Shown in pieces: positions 43,375 through 45,406 of a stretch of DNA of 64,000 nucleotides. Numbering within the stretch: position 1 is the stretch's first letter; each line of letters opens with the position of its first letter. A program made the translations under genes and the position numbers. Source of the stretch: Vulcanimicrobiales bacterium (GTDB lineage Bacteria > Vulcanimicrobiota > Vulcanimicrobiia > Vulcanimicrobiales > Vulcanimicrobiaceae); contig JBBRLI010000010.1 in NCBI GenBank assembly GCA_038231455.1, positions 32,001 to 96,000 on the forward strand, given 5' to 3'. The notes beneath the pieces were generated by a model that did no database searches, was not told the origin of the DNA, and was given only the letters and a program-made list of their open reading frames with translations.

Positions 43375-44857
43375 AACCCCACTGATCTTCGACATCGGCC
43401 AAGACGGTCGGGCGAACAACTATTTTGCCGAAGGCGCGCCGCTCTCGGATTTTCTCCCCAAAGAGGCGCTCCGCGACGAACTACCGCTGCCGGATAATAG
43501 CGAACTCGACGTCGTGCGTCACTTCACGCGCCTTTCGCAAAAAACGTTCAGCATCGATACGAATTTCTATCCGCTGGGCTCGTGCACGATGAAGTACAAC
43601 CCGCGCGTCAACGACGCGATGGCGAATCTTCCGGCGCTGCGTGATTTGCATCCGCTCGTCCCCGACGAACTCGCGCAAGGAGCGCTCGCCGTCATGTGGG
43701 AGCTGGAGAAGAGCCTGGTCTCGCTCTTCGGCATGGCCGCATTCTCGCTCAACCCCGCCGCCGGCGCGCACGCCGAACTCACGGCGCTCCTCATCGCAAA
43801 GAAGTACTTTAAAAAGTACGGTCAGGCGTTGACGCGCACGACGGTGATCGTCCCGGACACCGCACACGGCACGAACCCCGCTTCCGCAGCGATGGTCGGC
43901 TTCAAAGTCGTTTCGCTCAAGTCCGATGCGCGCGGACGCGTCTCGGTCGAGGAAATCAAAAAAGCGATCGGCCCCGATACTGCCGTCGTCATGATGACGA
44001 ACCCGAACACCCTGGGCCTCTACGAAGATCAGATCAAAGAAATCACCGACGCGGTGCACGACGTCGGCGGCCTGATGTACTACGACGGAGCAAACGCAAA
44101 CGCGCTCATGGGCAACTCGCGCCCAGGCGACATGGGCTTCGACCTCATGCATCTCAATCTGCACAAAACGTTCTCGATTCCGCACGGCGGCGGCGGCGCG
44201 GGCGCAGGCCCCGTCGGCGTCGCGCGTCACCTCGTGCCGTTCTTACCGACCCCCGTCGTGCGCGCAACGAACATCGTAAGCGAACACGAAGGCTGGCGCC
44301 CAAGCGACGAGATGACCTTCGCACTCGACTTCAACCGCGAAGACTCCATCGGAACGATGCGCTCGTTCTGGTCCAATTTCGCGCACATGGTCCGGGCACT
44401 CTCATACACCTATGCAAACGGCGCCGAAGGCCTAACGATGGTGAGCAAACTCGCCATCCTTAACGCCAACTATATCCGCGCCTCAGTCAAAGACCTCATC
44501 GAAATCCCCTACGACGAATACAACCGCCACGAATTCGTAGCTAGCGCCCAAGCCTTAAAACGCGAAACGGGCGTACGCGCCCTCGACATCGGCAAAGCAC
44601 TCCTCGATCGCGGCTACCACGCCCCAACGGTGTACTTCCCGCTCCTCGTCCCCGAGTGCCTCATGATCGAACCAACGGAAACAGAATCAAAAGAAACACT
44701 CGATGGCTTCATCGCCGCCTTCCGAGAAATCCTAACAGCAGCCCGAGAAAACCCACAATCAATCATGGACGCGCCAATAAACACCGCAGTAAAACGAATC
44801 GACGAAACCCGAGCCGCCCGCCAACCCGACCTCCGGTGGCGACCAGCCCCAAAGTAG
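43358..44857 (+). CDS. gcvPB: Glycine dehydrogenase subunit 2
   Basis: SD AGGAGG + TTG; YPLGSCTMKYNP, HGTNPASA, HLNLHKTFS.PHGGGG, MIEPTETES. Confidence 0.97.
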   Translation: MPAFAETPLIFDIGQDGRANNYFAEGAPLSDFLPKEALRDELPLPDNSELDVVRHFTRLSQKTFSIDTNFYPLGSCTMKYNPRVNDAMANLPALRDLHPLVPDELAQGALAVMWELEKSLVSLFGMAAFSLNPAAGAHAELTALLIAKKYFKKYGQALTRTTVIVPDTAHGTNPASAAMVGFKVVSLKSDARGRVSVEEIKKAIGPDTAVVMMTNPNTLGLYEDQIKEITDAVHDVGGLMYYDGANANALMGNSRPGDMGFDLMHLNLHKTFSIPHGGGGAGAGPVGVARHLVPFLPTPVVRATNIVSEHEGWRPSDEMTFALDFNREDSIGTMRSFWSNFAHMVRALSYTYANGAEGLTMVSKLAILNANYIRASVKDLIEIPYDEYNRHEFVASAQALKRETGVRALDIGKALLDRGYHAPTVYFPLLVPECLMIEPTETESKETLDGFIAAFREILTAARENPQSIMDAPINTAVKRIDETRAARQPDLRWRPAPK

Positions 44858-44880
44858 TGGGCAAAAAACAAAACCGCATG

Positions 44881-44915
44881 AAAAAACGGAGTCGGGATCA
44901 CCGACTCCGTTTTTT
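44881..44915. terminator. Bidirectional intrinsic terminator
   Basis: AAAAAACGGAGTCGG-gatca-CCGACTCCGTTTTTT. Confidence 0.9.
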
Positions 44916-45080
44916 ATTTGCGAAACGAGTTCGCTTCAAAAACCGCTTTCAAGTCCGGCGGCAAGTCATCGATCTCCTGAACCTGCCGAACCTTATAAAT
45001 CCGTGTTCATCCCAAATCTCACCCGACATGAAAGCGTCGATCGAACAACACCAATTTCGACAACCCAACACCAATAGTTC
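44914..45080 (-). pseudogene. Remnant small gene with two in-frame TGA stops
   Basis: Reads ..LSKLVLFDRRFHVG*DLG*TRIYKVRQVQEIDDLPPDLKAVFEANSFRK*; the final stop lies at the terminator edge. 5' end undefined. Confidence 0.4.
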
Positions 45081-45140
45081 GCCACCACCCCCCCTCTCTA
45101 CAAAACCCCACCGAACCCAACGCCACCGTTGCGACCGAAA

Positions 45141-45331
45141 GTCGTGCCGGAGGGGCTGGTGGGGTGCGTTGCCGGTGGGGTCTATGAGCTTTTCGCGGAG
45201 CGTGTTGGCCCAGCGTAGGCTGGGACAACACATCAGGATGGCGGGAGCGAAAAGTCATGAAGCAGGGCTTTTCCAAGGACGGGAAAGCCCGGCGTCCCCA
45301 CCGGCAACCCGCCCCGCCAGCCACTCACGAC
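45141..45331 (+). repeat. Multi-stem inverted-repeat element (MITE-like or structured ncRNA)
   Basis: Perfect 13-bp arms 45168-80/45296-308, extended by 45154-64/45312-22 and 45141-46/45326-31; three internal stems. Confidence 0.7.
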
Positions 45332-45356
45332 ACAATCCCCGAACAAAACGAAGTGA

Positions 45357-45370
45357 CGAACAAACGTTCG
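45357..45370. promoter_or_regulatory. LexA-type SOS box
   Basis: CGAAC-AAAC-GTTCG matches the Gram-positive CGAAC-N4-GTTCG consensus. Confidence 0.7.
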
Positions 45371-45397
45371 ATGGGGTAGTTTCTTCTTGGCCCCCAT

Positions 45398-45406
45398 TGC
45401 TATAAT
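45398..45406 (+). promoter_or_regulatory. Extended -10 promoter
   Basis: TGCTATAAT upstream of the Nudix-scpAB run. Confidence 0.65.

Follow-up and report, generated by a model that had tools for sequence, protein, structure and literature searches.

A multi-copy structured element in intergenic regions of one Eremiobacterota/Vulcanimicrobiota clade

The window, a stretch of 64,000 nt from contig JBBRLI010000010.1 of a Vulcanimicrobiales bacterium, contains on its + strand an element at 45141-45336, which we hold, at slightly better than even confidence, to belong to a family of structured repeats, intergenic and uncatalogued, that resembles in kind the REP/BIME, ERIC and MITE-like sequences. 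Its members have a stable fold with covarying pairs and a strand bias, occur in many copies within a limited clade of uncultured soil bacteria, and are placed between genes, mostly at gene 3' ends. Congeneric genomes differ in the presence or absence of individual copies, and within the complete genome G005 the copies are nearly identical. A sequence-only reading had proposed a candidate novel ncRNA or a non-autonomous mobile repeat, and this description is borne out by the multiple copies, the strong covariation, and the absence of both an Rfam match and an encoded protein.

Position, fold and anatomy of the element

The bounds given above were set by comparison with other copies. The sequence-only reading had placed the element at 45132-45331, which was right as to its existence and slightly off as to its ends. 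On the + strand the region 45120-45345 folds with a minimum free energy (MFE) of -129.6 kcal/mol (z -8.25), against -91.5 ± 4.6 for 200 dinucleotide-preserving shuffles, none of which equalled the native value, and every helix listed in that reading is present both in the sequence and in this fold, in which three hairpins are surrounded by a long closing helix. The reverse strand of the element is also well folded (-128.3 kcal/mol, z -6.88). The parts of the window copy are collected in the table.

Parts of the element in the window, in window coordinates
Part	Position	Strand	Remarks
5' terminal motif GTCGTGCC	45141..45148	+	Other copies have ATCGTGCC; first six bases pair with 45326-45331
P1 5' arm, G/T-rich	45152..45180	+	Copy-specific sequence, ending in conserved GGGG
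P2 5' strand TCTATGA-G-CTTTTCGC (bulged G), then conserved GGAGC	45181..45201	+	Compensatory changes in P2
Nested 28-nt hairpin and linker, GTGTTGGCCCAGCgtagGCTGGGACAAC-ACAT	45202..45233	+	Secondary insertion at the P2 apex
P2 apical mini-hairpin and junction, CAGGATGGC-GGGAG	45234..45247	+	Within the near-invariant CGGAGCC-AGGAUG-GCGRGAG block
P2 3' strand GCGAAAAGTCATGA and junction AGCA	45248..45264	+	Junction is AAGTAG in most copies
P3 hairpin GGGCTTTTCC-AAGGAC-GGGAAAGCCC	45265..45290	+	Copy-variable stem, loop of the type CA(N)GGAUG
GGCGT linker, then C/A-rich P1 3' arm CCCCACCGGCAACCCGCCCCGCCAGCC	45291..45322	+	From the fold and the alignment of copies
3' terminal part ACT-CACGAC-ACAAT	45323..45336	+	(C)AAGCCACAAT in other copies

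The window's own genome (G000; 3.71 Mb in 106 contigs) yielded nine places by BLAST. A covariance model built from nine own-genome copies recovered ten, among them the window copy (C10a), at 125-176 bits, with reverse-strand matches at the same places scoring 45-66 bits. The earlier reading had suggested counting copies and looking for empty sites, and both were found, the latter in relatives. The element is thus neither a single copy lacking conserved structure nor a match to a known Rfam family or IS end.

Units of the family are 160-195 nt long and are bounded by a 5' motif (A/G)TCGTGCC and a 3' motif (C)AAGCCACAAT. Only these end motifs of 8-10 nt are common to all ten own copies, the arms differing throughout; the 5' motif is kept with small variants in all nine aligned own-genome copies and belongs to the outer helix of the RNAalifold consensus. 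The closing stem P1, of about 29-33 bp and ending in GGGG/CCCC, differs in sequence in every copy of this genome and carries a conserved three-way junction (AAGUAG). P2, in which one G is bulged, ends in the near-invariant cap CGGAGCC-AGGAUG-GCGRGAG. P3 is a hairpin of 9-11 bp with a variable stem and the loop CA(A/U)GGAUG or CACGAUG; beyond it come GGGCGU, then the 3' arm and finally the 3' motif. With an invariant centre and arms that are free to change, the element reverses the usual logic of bacterial repeats.

Two hairpins of the earlier reading, though present, do not belong to the common core. The other copies do not share the small left-end hairpin CGAC-cgaaa-GTCG, although its right half is the conserved (A/G)TCGTGCC. 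The hairpin GTGTTGGCCCAGC-gtag-GCTGGGACAACAC (45202-45231) is part of a secondary insertion of 28-32 nt at the P2 apex, found in only three of the ten own copies (C10a, C11 and C4a). The same 28 nt, GTGTTGGCCCAGCgtagGCTGGGACAAC, occur identically at C11:36022-36049 and C4:164555-164582 and nowhere else in the genome, and are absent from the orthologues of C11 and C4a in G001, a genome of the same genus. They may represent either a tiny nested insertion with a strict site preference or gene conversion between copies, and their identity in three otherwise different copies suggests exchange between copies. Variants of 206 nt with a longer insertion at the P2 apex come from an unpublished genome (G009).

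Mechanical calling places two open reading frames across the element, at 44656-45405 (+) and 45019-45324 (-). The differences between copies consist of compensatory changes in pairs and of an indel of 32 nt, a length not divisible by three. We conclude from this that no protein is encoded by the element, in agreement with the earlier judgement that it holds no credible ORF. A search of Rfam 15 gave nothing overlapping 45141-45336 at E<=10 and no match at gathering thresholds in the whole window; the earlier reading had recognised no tRNA, 6S, SRP, RNase P or known riboswitch. Among the papers listed by a literature search on intergenic repeats and ncRNA of the Eremiobacterota, none describes such an element. 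We therefore appear to be dealing with a candidate-phylum family for which neither an Rfam entry nor a published description was retrieved, and a covariance model of it would remove many false calls of "novel ncRNA".

A motif AAACGGCT(A/T)AGAAGAAG was seen 25-42 nt 5' of several G000 copies, at variable distance (C9:88962, C3:143841, C11:35921; weaker at C10b and C4a). At C9 it is preceded by ATCGTGCCACCAC, which resembles the two end motifs of the element joined together.

Covariation and strand preference

RNAalifold predicted 62 pairs from nine own copies, 37 of which had changed on both sides. In an alignment of 75 rows fitted to the covariance model, consisting of 73 sense rows from many genera and two reverse-strand rows, both-sided change was seen in 60 of the 62 pairs, including all 11 pairs of P3 (helix 9); the P2 apex is fixed in the rows from 39 of the 69 source loci, as these had been retrieved by an exact 19-mer. 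Standard pairs make up 92.2% of the 4583 cells in this alignment, against 55.6% when columns were shuffled (none of 500 shuffles reached the observed value) and 31.6-45.7% when partners were slid by one to three columns. The covariation that the sequence-only reading had put forward as a check is therefore found, here by pair counts with shuffled and slid controls. At 60 of 62 covarying pairs, the structured-RNA signature is as clear as that of many accepted ncRNA families.

In comparing mismatches between the strands, an A.C opposition on the + strand counts as a G.U pair on the opposite one. Among 111 copies of at least 140 nt, the + fold is the more stable in 96 (mean 8.2 kcal/mol; Wilcoxon p 2e-16), and the + folds hold 352 G.U pairs versus 148 in the - folds. 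In the P1 arms alone G.U outnumbers A.C by 94 to 37, and in the core by 56 to 16. Family-wide, the 5' arm of P1 consists of 50% G and the 3' arm of 48% C. Both the G.U excess and the greater stability of the + fold indicate that one strand is kept foldable as a single-stranded molecule, which extends to the whole family what had been proposed for the window copy. RNA is the simplest reading of such a folded single strand; single-stranded DNA is also compatible.

Distribution, placement and turnover of copies

The element was found in 25 of 41 relatives, the window's own genome and the unpublished carriers G009 and G022 included (family f1 17/24, f2 5/5, f3 2/11). In an even sample of the phylum 56 of 151 genomes carry it (f1 52/71, f2 1/1, f3 2/9), with no carriers among 69 genomes from 18 further families. 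Searching named public genomes for the exact 19-mer GGAGCCAGGATGGCGRGAG yielded at least 121 stretches, almost all labelled Eremiobacterota/Vulcanimicrobiota, and the covariance model confirmed most of the 80 loci fetched. The family is thus confined to one clade of the phylum, its named public carriers being labelled Eremiobacterota/Vulcanimicrobiota. A few true members by the model stand in records labelled Binatia, Krumholzibacteriia, Acidiferrales, Limnocylindria, Pirellulales and Babeliales, which may reflect either mislabelling or mis-binning, or else transfer. Five loci with the 19-mer and no model match (L067, L077, L107, L110 and L127) were taken as chance occurrences, and carriage by phages was rejected, as the one exact 19-mer match among viral contigs was not recognised by the model.

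Copy number ranges from none found, complete genomes such as G007 included, up to the 43 matches scoring 64 bits or more in G005, also a complete genome. In the small genome G013 (1.9 Mb) just one copy is kept, and its site is syntenic with that of a copy in another genus, the unpublished G022, between a shikimate-dehydrogenase-like gene and an unknown gene; this counts against the repeat-element reading. Matches are frequently located at contig ends, and a covariance model of the family would also explain contig breaks in the assemblies of this clade.

All ten copies of the window's genome are intergenic and adjoin unrelated housekeeping genes: gcvPB and NUDIX-scpA for the window copy, dnaA and dnaN for C4b, and dnaX, thiC and glnA for others. 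Three are co-directional with their neighbours, two (C4a and C10b) lie between divergent genes, three are antisense to both neighbours and two lie between convergent genes. At C11, C9, C3, C31 and C12 the element ends, on its 3' side, 7-60 nt beyond the stop codon of an opposite-strand gene. In G005, where context was judged from crude GC3-based gene calls in 300-nt flanks, 36 of 45 callable flanking genes have their 3' end toward the element, and the 11 cases that could be called on two sides comprise six convergent, five co-directional and no divergent arrangements. With respect to the gene reading into them, 14 of the G005 copies are sense and 22 antisense, so that there is no sense preference. 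Along the G005 chromosome, examined for a replication-strand bias, + and - copies are interleaved. Head-to-head pairs of copies, spaced by 32-50 bp, are common.

Several other features adjoin the copies. The copy C4b (G000 C4:199772-199933, L015), which has an orthologue in G001, is followed just 3' by DnaA-box-like GTGGATAAT and CATCCACAA, and therefore likely stands in the replication-origin region. A different palindromic repeat (about GCTCACCCTTCGACGGGCTCAGGATGA) often adjoins the element in several genomes, namely in the 3' flanks of L201, L204, L205, L207, L212, L214 and L232 in G005 and also at L036, L075, L088, L100, L113 and L136; the intergenic regions of this clade thus seem to gather more than one repeat family, in the manner of BIME-like mosaics. 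Short tandem repeats were observed as well, with a unit of about 16 nt (GCCGGCCGTCAAACGC) in the 3' flank of L209 (G005) and a 7-nt unit (CGTTTCG/CCTTTCG) in the 5' flank of L047 (G019).

The flanks of G000 and G001 are about 87% identical. Six of the eight G001 copies are syntenic with copies of G000, and two stand where G000 has other DNA. Conversely, at the site of the window copy G001 retains only the 3' third of the element, at the C10b site its match resumes 33 nt before the element end, and at the C9 site about 156 nt are missing, leaving the end motif and the 13 terminal nt of the 3' arm. The genes flanking the window copy are 91 nt apart in a relative's contig, compared with 508 nt in the presence of the element; this contig (run X3) comes from a set of four runs labelled "METAGENOMIC RNA-Seq", possibly DNA, in which fragments of related cores are also present. 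Between G005 and its congener G151 one copy is absent from the latter, with 7 nt instead of 237 nt between two convergent stop codons, at another locus the head-to-head pair of G005 is matched by just one copy of G151, and at a third the copies are in opposite orientation with different arms. At the filled and empty pairs examined (G000/G001 and G005/G151) no target-site duplication was readable.

Across the six orthologous pairs of G000 and G001 (386 pair positions), 293 positions are unchanged, 22 have changed on both sides and 14 on one side with the pair kept, 23 are gapped and 34 are broken, the last count being inflated by what is probably assembly or sequencing noise at GC-rich hairpins: in the G001 copies L046, L059 (and L056), stretches of the arms have given way to long homopolymers of G or C. 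The copies in the window's genus are old and give no sign of recent movement there, and the pattern among orthologues is better accounted for by a function that is maintained, or by conversion between arms, than by the decay of a selfish repeat. In G005, about 36 of the 42 fetched copies have nearly identical cores and one of two arm types, a sign of either recent amplification or homogenisation through gene conversion. This subfamily has its own end motifs, 5' (A)GGTAGCG and 3' CGCGGGCC.

Two origins of the arms were considered and rejected. That the 3' arm is regenerated by folding back at the conserved GGGG/CCCC clamp is contradicted by several G005 copies that have the same P1 U.G wobbles (e.g. 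TTTCTCC opposite GGGGGAA), from which it follows that arms are inherited and not re-templated. Insertion of the core into pre-existing terminator hairpins was discarded because element-free sites hold no hairpin.

Comparison with known systems and possible roles

Taken as a repeat family, the element is a gene-less unit for which no promoter of its own was found, and whose + strand, as a single-stranded nucleic acid and most simply as RNA read through from neighbouring genes, folds into a closing stem that carries the conserved three-way junction. The units would be duplicated and/or homogenised within genomes by some machinery, such as gene conversion between copies or some type of transposase. 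A trans-acting factor may make its contact at the invariant apex and loops, whereas the arms would need only to pair. At the insertion sites the putative effect would likely be a large stable hairpin at transcript ends, which could protect the 3' end or bar convergent genes from each other. Were the partner identified, either a novel mechanism for mobilising small DNA or a novel type of protein-RNA regulation would come to light.

A REP unit is a short palindrome (about 20-40 nt) with a conserved 5' GTAG that forms inverted doublets, and the REP and REPIN sequences of Proteobacteria are mobilised by RAYT, a Y1 HUH transposase. The element described here is likewise gene-less, palindromic, strictly intergenic and mostly placed at gene 3' ends, with tens of copies per genome, head-to-head doublets, vertical inheritance within its clade and a variable copy number. 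Unlike REP it measures 160-195 nt, and its conserved part is the central three-way junction instead of the palindrome arms; moreover, a RAYT/Y1 gene was not found in most carriers. A 5' end with GTAGCG is restricted to the G005 subfamily. A second group of relevance comprises ERIC (or IRU), the enterobacterial repetitive intergenic consensus of about 127 bp, and other MITE-like repeats that fold as RNA, such as Correia/NEMIS, RUP and BOX. These share with the element the size class, a long imperfect palindrome, copies in transcribed intergenic DNA, a species-variable copy number, internal insertions at fixed sites (here the P2 apex) and conservation above the expectation for junk. The element differs from them in that it has no sequence or Rfam relationship, has copy-specific arms in G000, shows no target duplication of the TA or other type at the sites examined, and adopts a three-way junction supported by covariation. 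In contrast to MITEs it is conserved at its centre and not at its termini, and terminal inverted repeats are not common to the G000 copies; in G005, the arms are common to many copies.

The main alternative, which we consider possible though doubtful, is that the unit is a domesticated protein-binding RNA module, in which the apical loops and the GGA junction present sites of the CsrA type, and that copies dispersed in 3' UTRs and read-through transcripts titrate or recruit CsrA or another dimeric loop-binding protein. The SELEX consensus of CsrA is RUACARGGAUGU, with the GGA in a hairpin loop, and we take both apical loops of the element, C-AGGAU-G at the P2 apex and CA(A/U)GGAUG in P3, to match it. 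A permissive regular expression finds GGA in one or more of the apical regions in 77 of the 78 anchored copies, and in both regions in 52. The compensatory evolution at syntenic loci and the selection of the + strand also fit a role as RNA. On the other hand, the P3 loop reads ACGAU without GGA in 43 of 105 copies, as does the P2 apex in 17 of 42 G005 copies, no promoter or terminator was found for the unit, and the G005 copies have, as described, no sense preference toward the gene reading into them.

A csrA gene was found in 23 of 25 carriers, G000 among them, and in 8 of 16 non-carriers, the two carriers in which it was not found being 75% and 85% complete. It is placed in a cluster flgA...flgK-flgL-fliW-csrA-flagellin, and in three lineages copies are close to it: the only two copies of G010 lie within 12 kb, a copy of G035 at 2.7 kb and copies of G025/G026 at about 9.5 kb. 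Flagellin leaders have AUCAUGGAGGA or AUCAAGGAGGA at the ribosome-binding site, of the type CA(U/A)GGAGG and resembling the P3 loop. However, eight csrA-positive genomes are without the element, the co-occurrence is confounded by phylogeny, and the cases of proximity were noticed post hoc. We consider it unlikely that the copies act jointly as an RNA decoy or landing pad, distributed over the genome, to which CsrA or another dimeric reader of A(N)GGAU hairpin loops would bind. Csr/Rsm sponge RNAs (CsrB, RsmY/Z) similarly present GGA in hairpin loops, several per core of about 90 nt, in genomes that encode CsrA; the units of the element differ by having no promoter or terminator of their own, by being closed with a long stem, by occurring in tens of dispersed copies, by a GGA that is invariant in neither loop, and by a CsrA that sits with FliW. 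The flagellar, FliW-partnered type of CsrA is not known to have an sRNA or other RNA antagonist. If the proposal were true, the repeat would be a domesticated mobile module whose copy number tunes a global post-transcriptional regulator.

In G000 the fliW-csrA-flagellin genes are found at C58:2668-3730 (L193), with a sigma-28-like TAAAG-N15-GTCGATAT between csrA and the flagellin gene and a ribosome-binding region CAUGGAGGA before the flagellin start, a layout typical of the FliW/CsrA partner-switch known from Bacillus.

It is improbable that the copies are independently transcribed genes of trans-acting small RNAs, paralogous in the manner of Qrr or RsmX/Y/Z and each with its own promoter. 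The strong conservation of structure and the + strand bias would suit such genes, as would C4a and C10b, which in their divergent intergenic regions receive no read-through from neighbours. However, no promoter-like motif is common to the copies at a fixed upstream distance, no U-tract terminator was found, and near-identical G005 copies have only a few bases in common outside the hairpin. The spacing of 32-50 bp in head-to-head pairs also speaks against this reading, and it would be unusual for regulator genes to reach 43 copies in one genome while sister genera have none, and to be present or absent at orthologous sites.

The sequence-only reading had suggested an element moved as single-stranded DNA or RNA by an enzyme of the HUH (Y1/RAYT), HNH or RT type encoded elsewhere, a proposal that is consistent with strand-specific folding, which suits enzymes acting on one strand, and with the start GTAGCG of the G005 subfamily, reminiscent of the REP GTAG tag. 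It nevertheless has very little chance of being correct. The genome-wide search covered the Y1 and RT families with Pfam models on six-frame DNA, so that a very divergent enzyme could be missed; Y1_Tnp (PF01797) was detected in six of the 41 relatives and only three of the 25 carriers, and not in G000 or G005, and RVT_1 (PF00078) in two of the 41 relatives, both among the 25 carriers, and not in G005. The family spreads or homogenises in genomes where Y1 transposase and RT genes were not found. An HNH gene does lie beside one copy, C10b, at 117 nt downstream, the sole such case; it is conserved and single-copy, occurs also in the element-free G007 and is about 24 kb from the nearest copy in G005, and is thus unrelated to the element. 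Apart from it, no mobility gene was found beside the G000 copies, and no mobility family, HUH, HNH and RT included, was present among the Pfam-matched neighbours (metabolic and transport genes) of 12 low-copy loci, where many neighbouring ORFs are without a Pfam match.

The three-way junction might suggest a riboswitch or other cis-acting leader of the NUDIX/scpA operon, as might the location of the window copy, which precedes the NUDIX start by 114 nt and has its orientation. This reading is ruled out by the unrelated neighbours and by orientations that vary from copy to copy (three of ten antisense to both neighbours, two between convergent genes). In addition, a relative lacks the element at this very locus, and an extended -10-like TGCTATAAT (45398-45406) stands between the element and the NUDIX gene.

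A promoter/terminator consensus scan gave no promoter-like site and did not list a hairpin at the other side of the window copy. This hairpin, with 9 bp of GC-rich pairing (CGGAGTCGG/CCGACTCCG, 44887-44909) and a flanking A-run and T-run (44887-44915 in all), follows the gcvPB-like gene and resembles an intrinsic terminator that acts in both directions. With the hairpin upstream and TGCTATAAT downstream, the window copy is located between a terminator-like and a promoter-like site.
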